A DNA stretch of 34,463 nt from positions 1 to 34,463 of IMG/VR virus record IMGVR_UViG_3300045988_043822. One strand, 5' to 3'. This stretch comes from a virus. Positions within the stretch are counted from its first letter, which is position 1. The number at the start of each line of letters is the position of its first letter. The position numbers and the translations under genes are program-made. The notes under the pieces were generated by a model. That model saw only the letters and a list, made by a program, of their open reading frames with translations, did no database searches and had not been told where the DNA came from. Shown piece after piece: positions 3,600 through 34,463 of the stretch.

Positions 3600-3998
3600 A
3601 TGATAAGTTTTGTGGATATATGTAACGCATTCAATGTGCACGCTTTTATAGTTTGGGAGTTCCTTCGTAGATACGATCATTTAAGGGGCGTATCAAAAGA
3701 CAAATGGGGGCGCGGTTATGTACGTACGCCCGAGTGTGATAAATGGTTGGACAAGTTCTCTGGGTATCTGGTTTTTCAAGAATACAGTTACAAACAGGAG
3801 ATCAACAAAGGGCAATACACGTACAGGGACCCAGAGCGATTCCAGCGGGAGAAGGAGAGCGAAACGGATGTTCCTAAGGTTTATGGTGCAAAAGATGATC
3901 TTATAACTAGGACAGATCATTATACGGACGGTTCCAAATCGGTTAAGTACTGGGACACCAAGGAATGTGTGTGGAAGTATCAAAATGTAAGCAGCTAG
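3600..3998 (+). CDS. Hypothetical protein (132 aa from ATG 3600)
   Basis: The ORF track opens at TTG 3591. The first ATG is at 3600, 1 nt after the upstream TGA. The stop TAG lies inside the 33-bp tandem repeat. Confidence 0.65.
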   Translation: MISFVDICNAFNVHAFIVWEFLRRYDHLRGVSKDKWGRGYVRTPECDKWLDKFSGYLVFQEYSYKQEINKGQYTYRDPERFQREKESETDVPKVYGAKDDLITRTDHYTDGSKSVKYWDTKECVWKYQNVSS

Positions 3999-4056
3999 TC
4001 GAAAGAAAATAATCAAAATGATAGCAGCTAATCGAAAGAAAATAATCAAAATGACA
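3991..4056 (+). repeat. 33-bp tandem duplication (2 units, 2 mismatches)
   Basis: GCAGCTAGTCGAAAGAAAATAATCAAAATGATA at 3991-4023 and GCAGCTAATCGAAAGAAAATAATCAAAATGACA at 4024-4056. Confidence 0.9.
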
Positions 4057-4096
4057 CAAGGTGATCGCCTGTTCATTGTCATTTTGATTATTTTCT
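4037..4096 (+). terminator. Long perfect stem-loop at the end of the early/replication arc (putative terminator)
   Basis: AGAAAATAATCAAAATGAC (4037-4055) is the exact reverse complement of GTCATTTTGATTATTTTCT (4078-4096), with a 22-nt loop. It is followed by the T-rich GTTTCTTG. Confidence 0.5.
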
Positions 4097-4197
4097 GTTT
4101 CTTGTCGGGGTTGTCAAATCTTTTCAAGTCGTGAAAAATGACGGAACAAGGTATATGTTAATGAACTAAAACGTGGTTTAACGTATGTGAACAAGGT

Positions 4198-4504
4198 GTT
4201 CCAGATGTTCCAGCACTAAAATAATGTCGGAACACCATTTGGAACACCTCAAACCCCCATGAATACTAGGTTTTCTTATACTGTTCTATATGTTCTTACA
4301 TTATATATAATATAATATATAAAAAAGAATATATACAGTAGCATACAGTAAAAGGGGGTATATACAGTATTCTATTAAAAATCATTTTATAACAACCTAT
4401 ATAGGAAAATATGTGGAACGCTGAACAGTGTCGGAACACTTGGGGGGCCAAACCTCTGTGTTTGAGATGATTAGCCGCTCCAACACCTGTTCCGACACCT
4501 TTTT
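4198..4504 (+). repeat. Structured non-coding element, copy A (paralog of 21287-21593)
   Basis: Aligns end to end with copy B. GTTCC-type motifs sit at 4198, 4207, 4225-4233 (TGTCGGAAC), 4238, 4412, 4429-4437 (TGTCGGAAC), 4477 and 4489-4497 (GTTCCGACA). It has an AT-rich core and the palindrome CCTATATAGG at 4396-4405. Confidence 0.9.
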
Positions 4505-4564
4505 GTCATAGTTTATTACCAAATTAGGTGGTTTTCGAGGATTGTTTGCAGGAACTCAACTAGA

Positions 4565-4596
4565 TTGGTATGTGCTGATGAACTTCTATATCTTTG
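4565..4596 (+). promoter_or_regulatory. Bacteroidota-type promoter for the packaging/virion arc
   Basis: TTG at 4565-4567, a 21-nt spacer, then TATCTTTG (TAnnTTTG) at 4589-4596. It lies about 60 nt upstream of ATG 4659. Confidence 0.6.
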
Positions 4597-4658
4597 CATC
4601 TAACAAGACCGAGCGCGCACACACGTGCGGGCGTTCATTACTTAATAACAATAAAACG

Positions 4659-5261
4659 ATGGCAGCAGATACAAAGAAAGGAATTACTAAAGGGATGGCA
4701 ACCAAGAAAACAGCCAAACAGAAAACAGATATCAAGGAGTGCACCGAGTTGATCCAGTGCTTGAATACTAGAGGCGTCCGAGGCGCGAAACTCGAAAGCC
4801 TAGAGGACTGCATAGACTACCTAACCGAATACGTTGAGTGGTGCCGGGCTAACCCCCTAATGGCTAACGAGGTGTTGAAAGGAGGACAGGCAGCAGGAAC
4901 ACTGGTACCCGTCCCCAAACTTCGTGCTTTGAGCGTAGGGGCGTTTTGCTTGTTCATCGGGTGGAGTATAAAGGACTTCAACAAGAATGCCGAGAAACTC
5001 CTTAAACTAGCCGAGGACGGCAACGAGGAAGCCGAGGTACTTTCACTGGGGTATTCACTGATTAAGGAAACGATTACAACCGATATGGACGAGAGCGCAC
5101 TTAGTGGTTTGGTTGATGCTAACTACATGGCCAAGCTAAGAGGCTTACGAGACTTGAAGGACGTAACCAGCAATGGAAAGGAAGCAGGCACAAAGGCAAT
5201 GCAGGTAAATGTGTTGTCCGAGGATGCAGTGAACAACCTTAAGAAGCTGGGAGCAATTTAA
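4659..5261 (+). CDS. terS: Putative terminase small subunit
   Basis: Sits immediately upstream of terL. The N-terminus is basic. The segment LEDCIDYLTEYVEWCRANPLM...LSVGAFCLFIGWSIKDF resembles gp3-type small terminases. The ORF track start at 4542 is TTG and lies upstream of the promoter, so the gene is trimmed to ATG 4659. Confidence 0.5.
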   Translation: MAADTKKGITKGMATKKTAKQKTDIKECTELIQCLNTRGVRGAKLESLEDCIDYLTEYVEWCRANPLMANEVLKGGQAAGTLVPVPKLRALSVGAFCLFIGWSIKDFNKNAEKLLKLAEDGNEEAEVLSLGYSLIKETITTDMDESALSGLVDANYMAKLRGLRDLKDVTSNGKEAGTKAMQVNVLSEDAVNNLKKLGAI

Positions 5262-21271: not shown

Positions 21272-21286
21272 TTTACGTTATAAACT

Positions 21287-21593
21287 GTTCCAGTGTTCCG
21301 ACATTATTTTCAGTGTCGGAACAGTGTCGGAACACCTCAACCACCGATGAACACTAGGTTTCTTTATACTGTTCTAGATGTTCTTACATTTTATATATAA
21401 GAGATATAATAGAGAAAATAAATAGATAGAATACAGTAAAAGGGGGGTATATGCTGTATATTGATCATTTATAAATATATGGTTAGCCTATATAGGAAAA
21501 AAGGTGGAACACGGAGCAATGTCGGAACACCTGGGGGCTAAACCCCTGTGCTTGAGATGGTTAGGGCGTTCCGACATCTGTTCCGACACTTTT
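21287..21593 (+). repeat. Structured non-coding element, copy B (paralog of 4198-4504)
   Basis: GTTCCGACA at 21295-21303, 21568-21576 and 21580-21588. TGTCGGAAC at 21314-21322, 21325-21333 and 21520-21528. Degenerate copies at 21287 and 21503. CCTATATAGG at 21487-21496. AT-rich core. Confidence 0.9.
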
Positions 21594-21606
21594 ATTCTTA
21601 AATAGT

Positions 21607-21648
21607 GTTAACAAAAGAACCAAACACCACATAAAAGCGTTATATTTG
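21607..21648 (+). promoter_or_regulatory. Early promoter of the GTTAAC-N28-TAnnTTTG class
   Basis: GTTAAC at 21607-21612 followed by AAAAGAACCAA. TATATTTG at 21641-21648, which is 34 nt from the G of GTTAAC to the TA. Confidence 0.55.
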
Positions 21649-21719
21649 CAGAGGACGGAACGAAGCTAGCTAACGACTACACAAGTACGTAGAGAACAAA
21701 AAGTATAAACAGTGAAAAC

Positions 21720-21944
21720 GTGAAAAAGATGGAAAAGAATTTAGACCTTACAAAAACTCAATCTCTCACAGATTGTCAATTCGTGATAGGGGAGTCCAAA
21801 TTAAAATTTCAAGCTATGGGTAACGTGTACGTAGATACATTTTTCAGAGTGTACTACCAAGGTTCATTCGTGCACTACCTATATAAAGGTATGGAGTTGG
21901 GAACACTGGAAGAGGTTTCAAACGAAATATATAAAAGAAGTTAA
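21720..21944 (+). CDS. Hypothetical early protein
   Basis: GTG at 21720 or ATG at 21729. This is the first ORF after the promoter at 21641. Confidence 0.6.
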   Translation: MKKMEKNLDLTKTQSLTDCQFVIGESKLKFQAMGNVYVDTFFRVYYQGSFVHYLYKGMELGTLEEVSNEIYKRS

Positions 21945-21984
21945 CGAATGAACCAACTATCAATTTAAAGTGTTATATTTGCAT
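21931..21984 (+). promoter_or_regulatory. 54-bp promoter cassette, copy 1 (GTTAAC-N28-TATATTTG)
   Basis: ATAAAAGAAGTTAACGAATGAACCAACTATCAATTTAAAGTGTTATATTTGCAT differs at 1 of 54 positions from 24211-24264. GTTAAC is at 21940-21945 and the -7 box at 21974-21981. Confidence 0.65.
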
Positions 21985-22009
21985 GGTCAAACAATTAAAA
22001 ATTAAGATC

Positions 22010-22285
22010 ATGAAAAAGTTATCAGTACAAGAATTTATCCTAAATGAAGTAACGGAGTATATCAAAGCAAATATGTTCCCTTTGAGAAACAGATATGCAG
22101 CCCTAACAGTAGCCGAGAATATGCCTAGCTTTGGCACCTTCATAAGCACTTACTACATGGAAAGCATGAATGGGGCACAGTTCCCGGTAGACATAGAAAA
22201 CCTGTATATCAATTCAGACGATTACGAAGAGATGTACAACGAAATAATAATCAATTTAGTTAGTAACCTAGTTAAAAAAGCATGA
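22010..22285 (+). CDS. Hypothetical early protein (91 aa from ATG 22010)
   Basis: The ORF track start at 21983 lies 2 nt after the -7 box and so cannot be in the transcript. The next in-frame ATG is at 22010. Confidence 0.6.
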   Translation: MKKLSVQEFILNEVTEYIKANMFPLRNRYAALTVAENMPSFGTFISTYYMESMNGAQFPVDIENLYINSDDYEEMYNEIIINLVSNLVKKA

Positions 22286-23001
22286 GTATGAAAACTTTAG
22301 TATTTAACATTGAGTGTAGTAAAGACGTAGATTTGGCAGTAGAGTTAATCAAGAAGCTAAACACGCCCGTAGAAGTAATTTCCAGCCCGGTAGCCGAAAG
22401 CAAAGACCCTGTGGTGACCTATTACGAGCAAAAGGTAGAAGAGCCCTTAAAAGCCGGGGATATAAGCCGTGAGGAAGAAGAGGAACTCCTCCTAATCAAG
22501 CAGGCAGCAGAGGCCGAAGCAGAAGCGAAGGCAAAGGCAGAACGTGAAGCAGCAAAGGCAGCATCAGAGGCGAAAGCATTAAAAGCCAAGAAGGCTAGAC
22601 TAGAAGCAGAAGCCAAGGAAGCAGCAGAAGCCAAAGCAGAAGCATTAAAAGCCAAAGCAGCATCCGAACAAGCTAGACTAGAAAAGGAAGCAGAAGAAAA
22701 AGCAGAAGCGGAGGCGATGGATGCCACGAAGGCAGAGGCAGAAGCCGAAGCAGTAGCAAGAGCAGAAGCAGCAGCCCAAAAAGCCAAAGAGGAACGCGCA
22801 GCACTTAGAGAAAAGCGCACCGAACCAGCGGAAGGTACGCACATATCATTCGAGATGATCAGAATTAAAATGATGAAACGTATTAAGGAAGGGGCGTACA
22901 CCCGTGAATCAATGACCGAACTGTTAGCCAAATATGGAGCAAAGAGTTTGAGCAATGTTAAGGAGAGCGATTTCGCACAGTTGTATTACGATTTAAACTA
23001 A
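22282..23001 (+). CDS. Ala/Glu/Lys-rich coiled-coil protein with small globular ends
   Basis: About 110 residues of AEAEAKAKAEREAAKAASEAKALKAKKARLEAEAKEAAEAK... flanked by non-repetitive N- and C-terminal segments. ATGA overlap with the previous gene. Confidence 0.65.
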   Translation: MSMKTLVFNIECSKDVDLAVELIKKLNTPVEVISSPVAESKDPVVTYYEQKVEEPLKAGDISREEEEELLLIKQAAEAEAEAKAKAEREAAKAASEAKALKAKKARLEAEAKEAAEAKAEALKAKAASEQARLEKEAEEKAEAEAMDATKAEAEAEAVARAEAAAQKAKEERAALREKRTEPAEGTHISFEMIRIKMMKRIKEGAYTRESMTELLAKYGAKSLSNVKESDFAQLYYDLN

Positions 23002-24210: not shown

Positions 24211-24264
24211 ATAAAAGAAGTTAACGAAAGAACCAACTATCAATTTAAAGTGTTATATTTGCAT
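24211..24264 (+). promoter_or_regulatory. 54-bp promoter cassette, copy 2
   Basis: GTTAAC at 24220-24225 and TATATTTG at 24254-24261. 53 of 54 positions identical to 21931-21984. Confidence 0.65.
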
Positions 24265-24308
24265 AGTGATTAAGAAACAAATGGTATAACACTTTAAAAT
24301 TAAAGATT

Positions 24309-26392: not shown

Positions 26393-26888
26393 ATGACACA
26401 GGAACAGGCTAAGCAGTTACTCCGCTACGAACCCAGTAGCGGAAAACTTTTTTTGGAGGAAACGGGCTTGCAGCACTATGAGACCCGATCTATTAGCCGG
26501 AAGCATAGATACCAGATACAACTACCTCAGACTAAATATAAAAGGTAAAGTGTACATGGCCCACAGGGTTATTATGGTTCTAATGGGTCACGATTTAAAA
26601 GAAACTGAATATGTAGACCACATAAACCACAACCGATTAGATAACCGATACTTAAATCTTCGGATAGTCACAAAGGCACAAAACAACAAAAACCTATCTC
26701 TAAGGAAAAATAACCCTTTAGGTGTTGCAGGCGTGTATCAGCACAAGACGAGCAAACGGTTCATCGCCTATATACACACAGGCGGTAAAAAACTGCATTT
26801 AGGATGTTTCAAAACCCTAGAAGAAGCCGCCACCGCACGTTTAGAAGCTGAAAAGTTATACGGTTTTCACGAGAACCACGGTAAATAA
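26393..26888 (+). pseudogene. HNH-AP2 homing endonuclease interrupted by a 1-nt frameshift in a T7 run
   Basis: Frame A (26393-26548) encodes MTQEQAKQLLRYEPSSGKLF. After the T7 run at 26448-26454, removing one T gives WRKRACSTMRPDLLAG..., continuous with ORF 26478-26888 (YVDHINHNRLDNRYLNLRIV; AP2 GVAGVYQHKTSKRFIAYIHTGGKKLHLGCF) and collinear with the intact paralog at 641-1192. Confidence 0.75.
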
Positions 26889-27000: not shown

Positions 27001-29001
27001 ATGAAGCATTTATTTATAGATTTTGAAACATGGTCGGGCGTAGACATAAAGAAGTCGGGTAACTACAAGTACTCGCAGAGCAAAGACTTTGAAATACTTC
27101 TTTGCGGTTATATGTGGGACGAGCAAACAGAACCTACAATCATAGACCTAACAGATGAAGGCGGGCACACATCTTTCATGGATATGTTCCACGCTATCGC
27201 CAATGATAGTAACGTTACGATAGTAGCGCACAATGCCACGTTTGAGCGCATTTGCTTGAAGGCATACGGTATTGATATTCCAGTAGATCGTTTCTTTTGC
27301 ACGGCTAACATGGCTTTGTATTGCGGTCTGCCTCCGTCCTTGGACGCCGTGTCACAGATACTAAACCTAAAGGACAAGAAACTAGGCACAGGTAAGAACC
27401 TAATAAAGTTCTTTTCGGTTCCCTGTAAAGCAACCAAGTCAAACGGTGGCGTTACCCGTAATTTCAAGGAGGGTAACGAAAGGAAATGGGACGAGTTCAA
27501 AGAATACCTAAAGTATGACGTGCTCTCTGAAAAGGAAATTTTCGATAAGCTATCGGTGTTTGAGTTCCCACAGTTCGAGAAAGACGTTTATGCAGCGGAC
27601 CAGCGTATCAATGACTACGGTATTTTAGCAGACATGGACTTGGCCAATGCAGCCGAAGCCATGAACGAGGAACACAAGGTACTAGTAAAGGCAGAAATGG
27701 ATCAGTTGTTTGCAGAAGTTGGGGCAACCAATGTGAACACCTATCTGCACGCGCTTACAGGTATTAAACCTAGTAGTCTGAATAAGAAAAGTATTCCCGA
27801 ATATGTTGCAGGCCTTAAAGATAAACCCACCGAGATACAGAATAAAGCAAAATATATGCTTACTTTGCGCTCCGAGATGATGAAAACAAGCAACGCAAAG
27901 TACACGGCAATAAAGAATTGTATCGGTGACGGTGGGAGGATCAGAGGTTTGTTTCGTTACTATGGGGCCAACCGTACCGGAAGATGGGCCGGCCGACTAG
28001 TTCAGTTACAGAACCTACCACAGAACCATATCGATGATTTGGACGCAGCCCGTGAAACGGCTAAAATGGGTGATTTAGCCTTGCTAGGGCTTATGTATGA
28101 CAAGCCGACACACATTCTATCACAACTGATCCGTACAGCGTTTGTAGCCCCCAAGGGTATGACCTTTTCAGTTGCGGACTTTTCAGCCATTGAGGCTAGA
28201 GTTATCGCATGGGTGGCACAGGAGAAATGGCGTTTGGAATTGTTCGAGGACCCCCACAGTGATATATACTGTGCTTCGGCCGGTAAAATGTTCGGGTATG
28301 AAGTCCATAAGGGGATGGCAGAACGCCAACAAGGTAAGGTAGCCGAACTAGCTTTGGGGTACGGCGGAGGTGTTAACGCGTTAACCGCTATGGACACCAA
28401 AGGAGCACTATCTGACGATATGAAACCTATCATCGTAACCAAGTGGAGGGAGGCCAACAAAGAGATCACAGGGCTTTGGAAAAAACTTGAAACGTGCGCT
28501 AAGAACTGTATCGGCACTAGACGGGAACAAACCTACACAATAACAGAGAAAGCAAGTATTGTTTTTAATTATGAAAAAGGTGCAATGACTGTTAAATTAC
28601 CTAGTGGGCGAAAACTTTTCTACCCGTCCGCGCGTTTATCCGAAAGAACCATACAGGGGGCGGACGGTGATTTCACGGTTAAGGATATCTCCTACATGGG
28701 ACAGGATCAGATAACGGGCAAATGGACGAAGTTACACACCTACGGTGGGAAGTTAACGGAGAACGTTATACAGGCTATCGCCCGTGATCTTTTGGCAAAT
28801 GCGATATTTAAAGTATTTGATATGGGATATAACATAGTGTTACACGTACATGATGAGATAGCAGCCGAGATTAAGCAAGACGGCACAGAACAGTTCGTTC
28901 TAGACCAAATGTGTGATGCGATGTGCGACAAACCAAGCTGGGCGGAAGGTATAGCCCTACGGGCAGCAGGTTATTTAACTAATTATTATAAAAAAGATTA
29001 A
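27001..29001 (+). CDS. Family A DNA polymerase with 3'-5' exonuclease domain
   Basis: Exo I FIDFETWS, Exo II AHNATFE, Exo III YLKYDV, motif A VADFSAIEARV, motif B RQQGKVAELALGYGGG, motif C VLHVHDEI. Confidence 0.95.
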   Translation: MKHLFIDFETWSGVDIKKSGNYKYSQSKDFEILLCGYMWDEQTEPTIIDLTDEGGHTSFMDMFHAIANDSNVTIVAHNATFERICLKAYGIDIPVDRFFCTANMALYCGLPPSLDAVSQILNLKDKKLGTGKNLIKFFSVPCKATKSNGGVTRNFKEGNERKWDEFKEYLKYDVLSEKEIFDKLSVFEFPQFEKDVYAADQRINDYGILADMDLANAAEAMNEEHKVLVKAEMDQLFAEVGATNVNTYLHALTGIKPSSLNKKSIPEYVAGLKDKPTEIQNKAKYMLTLRSEMMKTSNAKYTAIKNCIGDGGRIRGLFRYYGANRTGRWAGRLVQLQNLPQNHIDDLDAARETAKMGDLALLGLMYDKPTHILSQLIRTAFVAPKGMTFSVADFSAIEARVIAWVAQEKWRLELFEDPHSDIYCASAGKMFGYEVHKGMAERQQGKVAELALGYGGGVNALTAMDTKGALSDDMKPIIVTKWREANKEITGLWKKLETCAKNCIGTRREQTYTITEKASIVFNYEKGAMTVKLPSGRKLFYPSARLSERTIQGADGDFTVKDISYMGQDQITGKWTKLHTYGGKLTENVIQAIARDLLANAIFKVFDMGYNIVLHVHDEIAAEIKQDGTEQFVLDQMCDAMCDKPSWAEGIALRAAGYLTNYYKKD

Positions 29002-31433
29002 TGATTATGAGAGTTACAGAATTAAGTTTTAATGTTGCGGTGTCTAGTTCTTCAAACAGTAAGAAGTGGAAAAACATTTCTATGACGTGGGGGGAGATAC
29101 AAGAACGGTTCGGGACAGCCGTACAGACCAAGGAAACACACAAGGAATTTATAAACCTTCCGAAGTCGGAACAAGGTATTATAAAGGATGTGGGCGCGTT
29201 CGTAGGCGGCGAACTGAACGGTGAACGTAGAATTAAGTCAGCCATGCTAGACCGTTCGCTACTGGCTTTGGATGTAGACTTCGGAGATGAAAATTTCCCT
29301 AGTCGATTCGAGGATATGATTCGCTGCGCATTCATCATTCATGGAACACACAAGCACAACCCGAAAGTAGGTATGTACCGTTACCGTATTCTTATCCCGT
29401 TGTCTAGACCCGTCGACGGTGACGAGTACGAAGCACTTGGGAGAAAGGTTGCGGAGTTGACAGGGATAGACTTGTACGATAGAACAACCTTCCAGCCCGA
29501 ACGCTGTATGTACTATCCTAGCGTGCCTAGTGACGTTGCGTATTACTTCTACGATAGTAGCCTGTTCCGCGACAATGCCTTGGACGTTGACGAGTATTTA
29601 GGTATGTATGAGGATTATCTAGATACATCAGAGTGGGCGTACCATAAGGACGAAAAGAACGAAGTCCGTTCACTAGTAAAGGAGCAGCAGAACCCGATAA
29701 TGAAAACGGGTGTTGTAGGTGAGTTCTGTCGGGCGTACACTATCTCCGAAGTTATCGAGAGATACCTGTCAGACGTGTACGAGCCTTCCGATATCGGAGA
29801 GGACAGATATACGTATCTAGGTGGAACGACACACGGAGGCATGATCGTGTTTGACGATATGTTCGCAAAGTCGTACCATAACAATGACCCGATACAGGGA
29901 AACCACGTGTATAACGCTTATGACTTGGTACGTGTACACAAGTTCGGCAAAATGGATAAGGGCGACGATAAGAAGTCCACAGCAATGATGCTGGAACTCA
30001 TCAACAAGGATGAGAAGGTAGCAGCCATGCGACGGGATAACATCCTAGGCAAGGGTAAACAGGTTGCAAATGATATAGACGATTTCAACGAACTTGTAGG
30101 TGGTGATGACGAAATGAGCGATGAGGACTTTAATTTCGACTTTGACAGCAAAGGAAACATGAAACCTAATGCGAATAACATATCGCAAATTTTCAAGGCT
30201 GACCAAGCGTTAAAAGGTCTGATAGCGAAAGACGAATTCAAGGACCGTATTATTCTTACTAGAAAACCAGCTTGGAGAAACGGCTTTGCAGGTGATGATT
30301 TCAGAGACGTAGATTTTGCAGGTATTAGAGTACACATCGAGAACAAGTACGGTATATCAGCAGCCAATAAGATAGATGATGCAATACAGATGGAAGCCGA
30401 GAAAAACTCATTCCACCCTGTGAAAGACTATCTAACCCATTTGGTATGGGACGGAACGCCTAGGGTGGATACACTTCTTATAGACTTTATGAAAGCAGAG
30501 GATACATTATACACCCGTGAAGCCATACGCATTATGCTAGTCGGTGCTGTACGTAGAATTTTTAGGGCCGGTTACAAATTTGATAGTATGCTAGTCTTAC
30601 AGAGCAGACAGGGAGCAGGAAAAAGTAAACTGATCAGTTTGCTAGGTAAGAGTTGGTTTAGTGATTCACTTTCAACAATGGACGGCAAAGCAGCGTACGA
30701 GCAGTTGCAGGGTAATTGGATATTGGAAGTAGCCGAACTTTCAGCCATGAAAAAGGCAGAAGTGGAAGGAGTTAAGAACTTCATATCCAAAACGGAGGAT
30801 AACTTTAGACCGGCATACGGGCGCGTTACAGTGAACTACAAACGCCAATGTGTGTTCTTTGGTACTACTAACCAATACGAGTTCTTGAAAGATACGACAG
30901 GGGGCAGACGGTTTTTGCCCGTAGTGGTTGAAGCCAATGAACGGACAGCCGATTTATTCAAGCCCGAAATGAAAGAGTATATAGATCAAGTTTGGGCAGA
31001 AGCCGTTAAGATGCACTACGACGGTGTTAGTACATTGTTATCACCCGAAGCCGAGAATGTAGCTAACGATCTAAGAGAGGAACACTTGGAAGTAGATTCA
31101 CGTGCAGAGGACATAGAGCGCTACTTGGAGATGCGCGTACCTAGTGACTGGTACGACATGAATGCAGCAGAACGAAAGATGTACTTTGATAACTACGATC
31201 CTAGTATGATTCCCGATAGCTACGGTGTTGCCGACTTCGTACCTACAAACGCTATAATGGTTGAAGTGTTCGGGCTAAGCGCTGAGAAACGGAACGTACA
31301 GATTGGTAGAATAATTTCGGGAATAATGAATTCTATGTGTGACTGGGATAGATCTAGACGGAGATCGTGCAAAGCGTATGGCAATGCAAACGGATATGTT
31401 AGAAAAGGTTCAGACTTCGATCTATTTGGTTAA
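29001..31433 (+). CDS. Primase-helicase (AEP-type VirE_N primase domain plus VirE P-loop domain)
   Basis: N-terminal LALDVDF and IIHGTHKH (AEP-like). Walker A QSRQGAGKSKL. VirE-like block NFISKTEDNFRPAYGRVTVNYKRQCVFFGTTNQ...GGRRFLPV. The start overlaps the polymerase stop (TAATG). Confidence 0.9.
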   Translation: MIMRVTELSFNVAVSSSSNSKKWKNISMTWGEIQERFGTAVQTKETHKEFINLPKSEQGIIKDVGAFVGGELNGERRIKSAMLDRSLLALDVDFGDENFPSRFEDMIRCAFIIHGTHKHNPKVGMYRYRILIPLSRPVDGDEYEALGRKVAELTGIDLYDRTTFQPERCMYYPSVPSDVAYYFYDSSLFRDNALDVDEYLGMYEDYLDTSEWAYHKDEKNEVRSLVKEQQNPIMKTGVVGEFCRAYTISEVIERYLSDVYEPSDIGEDRYTYLGGTTHGGMIVFDDMFAKSYHNNDPIQGNHVYNAYDLVRVHKFGKMDKGDDKKSTAMMLELINKDEKVAAMRRDNILGKGKQVANDIDDFNELVGGDDEMSDEDFNFDFDSKGNMKPNANNISQIFKADQALKGLIAKDEFKDRIILTRKPAWRNGFAGDDFRDVDFAGIRVHIENKYGISAANKIDDAIQMEAEKNSFHPVKDYLTHLVWDGTPRVDTLLIDFMKAEDTLYTREAIRIMLVGAVRRIFRAGYKFDSMLVLQSRQGAGKSKLISLLGKSWFSDSLSTMDGKAAYEQLQGNWILEVAELSAMKKAEVEGVKNFISKTEDNFRPAYGRVTVNYKRQCVFFGTTNQYEFLKDTTGGRRFLPVVVEANERTADLFKPEMKEYIDQVWAEAVKMHYDGVSTLLSPEAENVANDLREEHLEVDSRAEDIERYLEMRVPSDWYDMNAAERKMYFDNYDPSMIPDSYGVADFVPTNAIMVEVFGLSAEKRNVQIGRIISGIMNSMCDWDRSRRRSCKAYGNANGYVRKGSDFDLFG

Positions 31434-31445
31434 CAGAAGTTAACC
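31428..31445 (+). other. GGTTAAC-AGAA-GTTAACC hairpin at the primase stop
   Basis: 7-bp stem with a 4-nt loop. It contains two GTTAAC palindromes. The stop TAA at 31431-31433 lies in the 5' arm. Confidence 0.5.
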
Positions 31446-31458
31446 AGGAAAAGAAAAA

Positions 31459-31520
31459 CGGCTTTATTCATAAAGGATGTTAACAGAATATACAACCTAT
31501 CGAATAAAGCCGTATCTTTG
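31459..31520 (+). promoter_or_regulatory. 11-bp inverted repeat abutting a GTTAAC-N28-TAnnTTTG promoter
   Basis: CGGCTTTATTC (31459-31469) pairs with GAATAAAGCCG (31502-31512). GTTAAC at 31479-31484 lies in the loop. TATCTTTG is at 31513-31520. Confidence 0.55.
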
Positions 31521-31676
31521 AAATGTCGGAAGGGAGAAAGGTTGTTTCTTACCGAAACTAGAAACTAGATACCCCCACCAAAAGGAAAGATTAAACAGTG
31601 AATGGAATTTAATCACCGAGCCCCCAACCGATAAATAAAAAAGGTTAATGTACCGAACCAAATAACAGGTACAAAT

Positions 31677-33715: not shown

Positions 33716-34016
33716 AACAATATATTCGGAGAAGTACCTAGAGCGTACCTTCACCGAGAAGCTAAACAAGTCGGGAAAATGTGAGGTTATAAAGCTGTTA
33801 TCCACTTTCGTAAAGGGCCTGCCCGATAGAATGGTTTTGTGCACTGGGGGCTATGTAGGCTTTGCAGAAATTAAGACCACGGGAAAGAAACCAACCAAGA
33901 TTCAGTTGTACATTCACAGCAAGCTAGAAAAGCTAGGTTACAAAGTGTTCGTAGTCTATGACGTGGAAACAAGGGATGAGGCAATAGAGTATTTCTTAAG
34001 CAAAGTAAAATTATGA
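33699..34016 (+). CDS. VRR-NUC domain nuclease
   Basis: GLPDRMVLCTGGYVGFAEIKTTGKKPTKIQ shows the PD...ExK...Q pattern. 105 aa. The gene overlaps both neighbours. Confidence 0.8.
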   Translation: MSMESKTIYSEKYLERTFTEKLNKSGKCEVIKLLSTFVKGLPDRMVLCTGGYVGFAEIKTTGKKPTKIQLYIHSKLEKLGYKVFVVYDVETRDEAIEYFLSKVKL

Positions 34017-34463
34017 ATACATCATTTGAAAGAGTAAAAAATAGTACGGACGAGTGGTACACTCCAAAATACATTATAGACGCTTTGGGGGAGTTCGACA
34101 CAGACCCGTGTTCACCTATGGTACCTCCGTTCAAAACGGCAAATACCATGTACAACAAGGAGAATGACGGGCTCGAACAGGAGTGGGTGGGCCGAGTATG
34201 GTTAAACCCTCCGTACTCTAGACCGTTGATAAACAAGTTCATTGAAAAGATGGTTAAACACAACAACGGAGTAGCCCTAGTTTTTAACAGGCTTGACAGT
34301 AAACTATTTCAAGAACAACTACTAGATAAAGCAACTTCAATGCTTATAATGAAAGGTAGAATTAAGTTCTTGCGTGATAACGGGCAGCAAGGTGGATCGG
34401 CCGGGTGTGGCTCTGTACTGTTTGCTTTCGGCGAGGAAAACGACTTGGCCTTAATGGCTAGCG
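34013..34463 (+). CDS. Phage Dam-like DNA N6-adenine methyltransferase; 5' part in this window, continues at 56-87 after the junction (160 aa in total)
   Basis: DEWYTPKYIIDALGEFDTDPCS and VWLNPPYS motifs. ATGA overlap with the VRR-NUC stop. Confidence 0.8.
   Translation, partial: MNTSFERVKNSTDEWYTPKYIIDALGEFDTDPCSPMVPPFKTANTMYNKENDGLEQEWVGRVWLNPPYSRPLINKFIEKMVKHNNGVALVFNRLDSKLFQEQLLDKATSMLIMKGRIKFLRDNGQQGGSAGCGSVLFAFGEENDLALMAS

Follow-up and report, generated by a model that had tools for sequence, protein, structure and literature searches.

We analysed a 34,463-nt stretch of viral DNA (IMG/VR record IMGVR_UViG_3300045988_043822, positions 1 to 34,463; hereafter the window), which represents a 34,408-bp circle with a 55-bp terminal assembly overlap and carries all its genes on the + strand. 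Two related non-coding elements of about 307 bp, copy A and copy B, lie at its two module boundaries and are probably a duplicated, concertedly evolving replication origin of the kind read by the Rep proteins of Staphylococcus aureus pathogenicity islands (SaPIs). An origin of this class is favoured because each element holds an array of short repeats (iterons) in a fixed geometry around an AT-rich core, because the two copies appear to evolve in concert, and because the phage encodes a primase-helicase homologous to SaPI1 Rep1, including its C-terminal domain. The elements most likely act as DNA, as two copies of one cis-acting element, and nothing suggests an RNA function.

Comparison of the window with itself by BLASTN returned a direct repeat, 4197-4502 against 21286-21593, with 77.8% identity over 315 columns (E = 2e-58 to 3e-57), and a MAFFT alignment of the two sequences agreed, showing colinear full copies. 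An earlier note on this DNA had described two elements aligning end to end in the same orientation at three quarters to four fifths identity, an estimate that holds, and the near-identical blocks that it quoted are present in the MAFFT alignment. It had also placed them in the two longest non-coding stretches, as they are: the gap holding copy A (3999-4658, 660 nt) and that holding copy B (21272-21719, 448 nt) are the longest intergenic regions of the genome, followed by one of 241 nt. The close relatives of the window are 21 sewage isolates on Phocaeicola (OP172736-750, OP172652-657), of which 11 were compared (L001-L011), giving with the window 24 copies, two in each of 12 genomes. Conservation in relatives, which the note had proposed looking for, was found, with both copies at the same two places in all 11. 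Its remark that the copies lie almost opposite each other is correct for the window, where the offset is 17,089 bp or 49.7% of the circle, and does not extend to the relatives; because the A-to-B distance there varies from 44 to 54% of the genome, the placement is a coincidence of module sizes and not a constraint. The two repeat units are:

4197-4504, unstranded: element copy A, direct repeat of 21286-21593, syntenic in 11/11 close relatives.
21286-21593, unstranded: element copy B, coinciding with a variable island at 21286-21579.

The repeated unit is GTTC[CT]/[AG]GAAC, with a fuller form TGTTCCGAC, and between 9 and 11 units are found in every one of the 24 copies. Their order is fixed throughout: >> << >> on the left, the AT-rich core, and << (<) >> on the right, with spacings of 9, 22, 11-12, 42, 9 and ~124 nt, then 7-12 (or 18), 41-47 and 12 nt. 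These spacings are kept despite about 30% sequence divergence and indels, and the longer ones are mostly near whole helical turns. In 24/24 copies the inner left pair (TGTTCT or TGTTCC, twice) points right and the inner right pair or triplet (GGAAC, two or three times) points left, so that the repeats face the core from both sides. The core varies in sequence, while its richest 40 nt contain 80-95% A+T in every copy, and iterons flank it left and right. The features of the two copies in the window are as follows.

4197-4246: copy A left arm, with exact hexamers TGTTCC at 4197 and 4206 (+) and GGAACA at 4229 and 4241 (-), spaced 9, 23 and 12 nt.
4241-4281, unstranded: best-conserved block GGAACACCTCAAACCCCCATGAAYACTAGGTTTTCTTATAC, mostly invariant in the 24 copies.
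4282-4296, + strand: inner iterons of copy A, a TGTTCT pair (4282, 4291) directed towards the AT-rich core.
4296-4400, unstranded: AT-rich core of copy A, a candidate unwinding element; a degenerate hairpin occupies its centre (4343-4372).
4396-4409, + strand: CCTATATAGGAAAA, right border of the copy A core, largely invariant in the 24 copies.
4415-4493: copy A right arm, with GGAACG at 4415, TGAACA at 4422 and GGAACA at 4433 (-), a degenerate GCTCCA, and TGTTCC at 4488 (+).
21286-21384: copy B left arm, with TGTTCC at 21286 and 21294 (+), GGAACA at 21318 and 21329 (-), and TGTTCT at 21370 and 21379 (+).
21384-21490, unstranded: copy B AT-rich core, 88% A+T in 21384-21423, with a central hairpin at 21431-21459.
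21491-21584: copy B right part, with TATAGGAAA at 21491, GGAACA at 21506, GGAGCA at 21513 and GGAACA at 21524 (-), and CGTTCC at 21567 and TGTTCC at 21579 (+).

The left arm of copy A forms an imperfect palindrome (4197-4246), and an extra GGAACA (4143) and a TGAACA (4188) lie just upstream of it; the left arm of copy B has the same order and spacings. The inner pair of copy A differs by one mismatch from TGTTCC, which is exact in several relatives (e.g. L2B, L4B, L6B and L11B). In the core of copy A, A+T content reaches 95% in 4296-4335 and is 73-93% in 30-nt windows, and on its right side GTGTCGGAACA (4428-4438) and TGTTCCGACAC (4488-4498) are perfect 11-nt inverted repeats. The arms of the central hairpin of copy B are ATACAGTA and TGCTGTAT. 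Besides the iterons, two blocks are conserved, GGAACACCTCAAAC.CC.ATGAAYACTAGGTTTT on the left and CCTATATAGGAAAA at the right edge of the core; among A copies the block at 4241-4281 is 89% identical, against 47-77% in adjacent windows. Two further candidates were tried and rejected. An 18-codon peptide (ATGAACACTAGG...) within the conserved block is put out of frame by a 2-nt insertion in L2B and L4B, and a long-range pairing between CCTCAAAC on the left and GTTTGAG on the right fails because the right partner becomes GATTCAATG or GGTTCAATG in several copies while the left one is unchanged.

The iterons are concentrated in the elements. The longer form TGTTCC[AG][AG]C occurs 12 times in the genome, nine of them inside the 0.64 kb of the two elements, an enrichment of about 150-fold. 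A blind scan of the genome for clusters of 6-mers returned the two elements and one coding low-complexity tract (22481-22800), with no further non-coding cluster of short repeats. That tract is a dense AAGCAG/GAAGC repeat within the open reading frame (ORF) 22282-23001, where it encodes a stretch rich in Glu, Ala and Lys.

Sequence comparison among the close Phocaeicola phages sets the elements apart from the rest of the genome. Relative to the window, their structural DNA is about 91% identical and their primase-helicase 97-98%, while the elements coincide with islands of variation:

4134-4524: variable island around copy A, with a mean pairwise identity of 47-89% against 93-97% in the flanks (9 genomes).

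Copy B behaves likewise, with 63-85% identity inside the element and 93-98% in its flanks (11 genomes), and the conserved flanks of both include non-coding DNA. Mean identity is 69% among A copies, 77% among B copies, and 61-89% between A and B within one genome. Given proteins at 97-98% and coding DNA at about 91%, an element identity of about 70% would be the level expected of unconstrained sites; combined with the fixed geometry, this suggests that the spacers drift freely and that the repeats and their spacing are held. The cores occur as discrete cassettes common to A and B copies and to different phages, and in L003 the two cores are nearly identical, which indicates that the copies have exchanged sequence.

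Using an exact pattern from the most conserved block, both copies were likewise found in one IMG/VR genome and in several metagenome contigs; an exact IMG/VR pattern taken from the inner iteron block (TACTGTTCTANATGTTCTTACATT) gave no match, as this block varies. One metagenome contig, OGLQ01000047.1 (L022/L023), is 128,884 bp long, 3.6 times the phage length, and contains a colinear relative with copies 17.4 kb apart (20 kb read); it could be a concatemer-like misassembly, or an integrated or episomal form. Three of the 11 GenBank records break within the first 55-78 nt of the element (L005 at its end, L006 and L007 at start and end), the stretch in which A and B are most alike. These breaks most likely reflect an assembler failing at a repeat longer than its k-mer, real DNA ends being the alternative, and they call for caution at the left arm of the element when such genomes are assembled.

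The pair extends to more distant phages, which carry it at the same two module boundaries with repeats of their own:

BM127P1: primase-helicase 68% identical to that of the window; A against B 78.7% over 287 nt; repeat TGTTCCA.
BU2-2/EMB2: primase-helicase 58%; A against B 82.8% over 203 nt (BU2-2, a linear record whose ends overlap by 141 nt); repeat CTGTGCA (in EMB2, 10 in the gaps and 1 elsewhere).
ARB14: primase-helicase 44%; A against B 61% over 334 nt; TCTATCC-type words.

Elements from different lineages can hardly be aligned with one another, and the two copies of one genome remain alike. Since each lineage has its own A/B pair, with different short repeats at the same boundaries, the pair appears to evolve in concert, matching a lineage-specific reader. 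The word TATAGGAAA is confined to the two elements both in the window and in BM127P1, and copy A of both BS162P3 and ARB14 has it at the corresponding position, beside iterons of different sequence. Compared by eye with the DnaA box TTATCCACA, the ARB14 repeat TCTATCCA(C) agrees at 7/9 positions and TGTTCC at 5/9. In BS162P3 and PM21P1 the pair is uncertain: the similarity between A and B is weak, and no 7-mer is present at least twice in both gaps of either phage.

A candidate reader is found in the replication module, which is T7-like and encodes a DUF2800/PD-(D/E)XK nuclease, a Gp2.5-like single-stranded DNA-binding (SSB)/annealing protein, an exonuclease, a family A polymerase, a VapE-type primase-helicase, a SNF2 helicase and a VRR-NUC/resolvase-like nuclease.

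29001-31433, + strand: primase-helicase, VapE-type, 810 aa, proposed initiator; its C-terminal domain comprises residues 728-810 (31182-31430).

This protein contains the Pfam VapE-like domain (E = 6e-75) and matches the structure of SaPI1 Rep1 (PDB 7PDS) with E = 1.5e-78. A profile built from seven family members aligned over positions 388-804 to residues 28-465 of the 477 in 7PDS (E = 2.8e-108), C-terminal domain included, an assignment of that domain to the Rep family that is made at the sequence level. We then compared the helicase and the C-terminal 83 residues of six lineages with the window protein:

BM127P1: helicase 75%, C-terminal 83 residues 67%.
BU2-2: helicase 65%, C-terminal 83 residues 30%.
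EMB2: helicase 65%, C-terminal 83 residues 27%.
BS162P3: helicase 61%, C-terminal 83 residues 31%.
PM21P1: helicase 47%, C-terminal 83 residues 19%.
ARB14: helicase 46%, C-terminal 83 residues 22%.

The C-terminal domain is thus similar in BM127P1 only, the sole lineage that retains TGTTCC. For TerS the identities in the same six lineages are 84, 66, 66, 63, 35 and 27%, and the lack of a comparable drop argues against the elements being TerS sites.

Mechanistically, the primase-helicase would be a primase fused to a self-loading superfamily 3 (SF3) helicase like SaPI Rep1, whose C-terminal domain would read the repeats. The protein would assemble on both sides of the core, melt it and load itself, and once loaded it would prime synthesis for the T7-like replisome with its family A polymerase and Gp2.5-like SSB. 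Gene conversion would keep the copies alike because one protein must read both. Either both copies would fire, or one would fire while the initiator bound at the other stalled the fork, as has been proposed for oriL and oriR of phage SPP1.

Several points weigh against this proposal. We infer binding, melting and initiation at A and B from sequence in every case. GC and AT skew are positive all round the circle and do not switch at either element, so that an origin gains no independent support from skew, although transcription in one orientation would hide such a signal. An AlphaFold single-sequence model of residues 655-810 (pLDDT, the predicted local distance difference test, of 42) is too poor for the winged helix to be checked. 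The apparent covariation of the C-terminal domain with the repeat rests on a handful of lineages, and C-termini often diverge fast anyway. The first early protein diverges likewise (59, 33, 17, 29, 25 and 25% in the same order of lineages), and a small DNA-binding protein of another kind could therefore be the reader. The elements lie ~7.2 and 7.4 kb from the primase-helicase gene, unlike the SaPI ori downstream of rep, and the gap following that gene (31434-31674) contains a promoter and a leader and no iterons. Finally, a major promoter follows closely on each element, a position in which a regulatory role would make sense too.

Three roles had been suggested in the earlier note: a bipartite replication origin, an operator or enhancer shared by the early/late switch, and paralogous non-coding RNA (ncRNA) genes. 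The first is the one we favour, on the iterons, the concerted evolution and the homology to Rep1; the second may coexist with it; and the third is disfavoured by the absence of an internal promoter, the weak fold and the lack of an Rfam family. The accompanying statement that no standard feature class explains the elements has to be withdrawn, as they fit the class of origins built from iterons and an unwinding element, the SaPI ori being closest. The regulatory alternative depends on the immediate surroundings of the two copies:

4037-4096, + strand: terminator-like 20-bp perfect inverted repeat, which ends the early arc upstream of copy A.
4589-4596, + strand: TATCTTTG, promoter -7 motif of the terS/late operon, 85 nt past copy A.
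4659-5261, + strand: terS (PHROG 606), with its real start at 4659 and copy A upstream.
21641-21648, + strand: TATATTTG, -7 motif of the first early promoter, 48 nt past copy B, conserved in 12/12 genomes.

Copy A is therefore located, as the note had it, between the early arc and terS, and copy B between the lysis cassette and the first early promoter: it follows the last late gene, the late operon ending, by similarity to the annotated BU2-2 genome, in a holin, an endolysin and one further gene. The distances of 85 and 48 nt fall within the 45-90 bp given there for a TAnnTTTG promoter past each copy. Each element is flanked by a terminator-like hairpin on one side and a promoter on the other. 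Analogous hairpins precede copy A in BM127P1 and BU2-2, and TAnnTTTG is found at the same place upstream of terS in BM127P1, BU2-2, PM21P1, BS162P3 and ARB14.

The main rival is accordingly a shared operator or enhancer, in which a phage regulator on the TGTTCC arrays would repress one and activate the other of the early and terS/late promoters, maybe by looping as lambda CI does between OL and OR. As an account of the elements we consider it rather unlikely, and it may coexist with an origin function. An element placed 48-85 nt upstream of a conserved TAnnTTTG that heads a major operon, past a terminator-like hairpin, would be consistent with an operator, the phased arrays would suit cooperative binding, and the many small early proteins of unknown function, among them the first early protein with its divergence in step with the repeat type, are possible regulators. 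However, a plain operator needs no 100-nt core of 80-95% A+T with converging repeats, and the other early promoters (21931-21987, 24211-24267 and ~31513) have no TGTTCC arrays. In addition, the distance from element to promoter is unequal in A and B, the variable island stops sharply before the conserved promoter block, and no transcription factor was recognised by Pfam and PHROGs.

Other sequences near these promoters were also recorded. The first early promoter belongs to a family of three copies, a 57-nt cassette (TTAAC.AA.GAACCAA...GTTATATTTGCA) at 21598-21654, 21931-21987 and 24211-24267, the second and third being 96% identical. The stretch between the terS promoter and start codon contains a leader at 4606-4640, GACCGAGCGCGCACACACGTGCGGGCGTTCATTAC, which is recognisable in BM127P1, BU2-2, BS162P3 and PM21P1 (GACCGCG.GCACACACGT.CATTAC) and conserved far better than the adjoining origin-like element; it could be a control element of the late operon or part of a packaging (pac) site. 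Downstream of the primase-helicase gene, 31513-31674 starts with a TATCTTTG promoter motif followed by a leader of ~120 nt (GGGAGAAAGGTTGTTTCTTACCGAAACTAGAAACTAGATACCCCC...GTGAATGGAATTTAATCACCGAGCCCCC). A similar sequence follows the early promoter of BU2-2, and a loosely similar one that of ARB14. The stretch could be a structured 5' leader that has been conserved; Rfam at gathering thresholds returned nothing for it. Elsewhere, a 160-aa ORF (MNTSFERVKNSTDEWYTPKY...) spans the window ends (34013-34408 joined to 1-87), so this region is not a third long non-coding gap. Genes for HNH (I-HmuI-like) endonucleases occur at 641-1192 and 26478-26888 in the window, at 33862-34413 in L006 and at 23809-24348 in L009; their differing places in the early region explain part of the variation in genome size among the relatives.

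That copy A is a pac site bound by TerS, with copy B as a second or vestigial pac-like site, is very unlikely. Copy A does lie directly upstream of terS, the relative EMB2 is reported to package by headful with circularly permuted ends, and repeat arrays are frequent among TerS sites. On the other hand, a full second copy is found half a genome away in every lineage examined, which a pac role leaves unexplained and where cutting would do harm, and TerS is still 63-66% identical, with no domain-specific drop, in BU2-2 and BS162P3, whose repeats differ completely. The start of the EMB2 record is not a packaging end, and no pac position can be taken from it. There is, moreover, an alternative candidate in the motif ATCAAAATGAYA, which several lineages have in the interval from the last early gene to copy A.

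In the window this motif has three direct copies and one inverted copy within 3979-4096, where a 33-bp tandem repeat (3979-4011/4012-4044, 91% identical) continues into the perfect 20-bp inverted repeat 4037-4056/4077-4096. Repeats of the AAAATGATAG type between the last early gene and copy A are also found in BM127P1, BS162P3 and BU2-2, despite their different iterons. The repeats at 3979-4096 may be a terminator, or a pac/TerS site.

We regard paralogous ncRNA genes or cis-acting RNA structures as highly improbable. In their favour is the central hairpin, which has perfect stems of 11-13 bp and compensatory variants (GAATACAGTA/TACTGTATTC, GATCACAGTA/TACTGTGATC and AATGTACA/TGTACATT). This only covarying helix is nevertheless present in about half of the copies and absent from the 12 'type 2' cores, and the RNAalifold consensus reached -11.35 kcal/mol over 354 columns, with a covariation term of -1.62. 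None of the 24 copies contains an internal TAnnTTTG on either strand, and the conserved parts consist of one hexamer in both orientations, a strand symmetry typical of DNA sites. No Rfam family passed the gathering thresholds, relaxation to E <= 1 brought up sub-threshold hairpin noise only, and a tRNA search found none. A neutral duplication, or a small mobile element without function resembling a miniature inverted-repeat transposable element (MITE), would suit the near-unconstrained ~70% identity of the element beside coding DNA at ~91% and proteins at 97-98%, but it is scarcely credible, because both copies are kept in synteny in 12/12 close genomes and pairs occur down to 44% primase-helicase identity, because repeat order and spacing are fixed, and because A and B change in concert. 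In addition, among 185,579 bacterial and archaeal genomes scanned with an exact pattern, a single phage-sized contig of a metagenome-assembled genome was found, which gives no sign of spread in hosts.

Returning to the twin iteron origin, a bolder version can be offered as a tentative and rather improbable extension. A and B might form one coupled device, in which the primase-helicase pairs the sites across the circle (handcuffing or looping), one site fires, the other arrests the fork to yield concatemers, and occupancy of the arrays gates the early and late promoters. If so, one protein-DNA architecture would time the replication mode, the early/late switch and the readiness for packaging, and gene conversion would keep the copies matched across a family of abundant human-gut Bacteroidales phages.

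The siphoviruses of this group infect Phocaeicola, Bacteroides and Parabacteroides, which are dominant in the human gut; their replication is almost unstudied and their genes are nearly all annotated as "hypothetical". Knowledge of an origin and its reader would provide cis and trans parts for replicons and phage engineering. If the proposal is true, the pairing of iteron and C-terminal domain would be a lineage-specific determinant of compatibility that may govern recombination between modules, the paradigm of the SaPI Rep self-loading helicase would extend to true phages of hosts in a different phylum, and the question why some phages maintain two matched origins could be studied in a second system besides SPP1. 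The parts are known, namely the iteron origin, the Rep-like self-loading helicase and, in SPP1, twin origins. As far as we could find, no description exists of their combination, of its location at the two module boundaries, distant from the initiator gene, or of its upkeep across a family of gut Bacteroidales phages.

Four known systems can be compared with the pair. In the iteron plasmids, R6K with its alpha, beta and gamma origins and P1, F and RK2 with their handcuffing, a single initiator occupies iteron arrays that lie apart and can bring them together through looping. There, the arrays serve copy-number control, and the initiators are unrelated winged-helix Rep proteins without helicase activity. 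In satellite phage P4, the comparison drawn in the note, one short repeat (TGTTCACC) is present in both ori and crr, and the alpha primase-helicase recognises it through its C-terminal domain; crr consists of two 120-bp direct repeats, is required in cis as a helper and is not a copy of ori. In the window, one repeat occurs in two separated elements, and the candidate reader is a primase-helicase with a lineage-variable C-terminal domain; a likeness to P4 is possible. A and B are full colinear equivalents, whereas crr is unlike ori, which makes P4 a looser analogue than SPP1. The P4 repeat is no more than similar to TGTTCC, possibly by chance.

Bacillus phage SPP1 carries a pair of origins with similar organisation, oriL and oriR, and its initiator gp38 binds to both; oriL is where replication begins, and gp38 at oriR has been proposed to stall the fork and so bring about the switch to recombination-dependent concatemer synthesis that headful packaging requires (PMC6316719). 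Shared with the window are the two similarly organised sites with repeats and an AT-rich unwinding element on one circularised genome, the location of all genes on one purine-rich strand, and headful (pac) packaging, reported here for the relative EMB2, with circularly permuted ends (PMC9584325). For a switch by fork stalling, the window has a PD-(D/E)XK nuclease, an exonuclease, an annealing SSB and a VRR-NUC/resolvase-like protein. The systems differ in that gp38 is an unrelated protein that depends on a separate loader and on a DnaB-type helicase, that oriL lies inside gene 38, and that the SPP1 origins have direct repeats instead of convergent arrays. We know of no description of concerted evolution of oriL and oriR across SPP1 relatives.

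The closest match is with the SaPIs, whose Rep proteins are self-loading initiator-helicases with a C-terminal winged helix that binds 6-12 penta- or hexanucleotide iterons. These iterons surround an AT-rich centre, two or more to either side, and the two sides are oppositely oriented; SaPI5 has a primase fused to Rep (PMC9371898). A SaPI has one ori, directly after rep, whereas the lytic-type Bacteroidales siphovirus studied here has two full copies, each ~7 kb away from the primase-helicase gene and at a module boundary, and binding to them is predicted. In all other respects compared the two agree: the number and length of the iterons, the AT-rich centre and the opposed flanking iterons are present in 24/24 copies, the homologous initiator-helicase is fused to a primase as in PriRep5, and the iteron sequence differs by lineage and tracks the C-terminal domain of the initiator.

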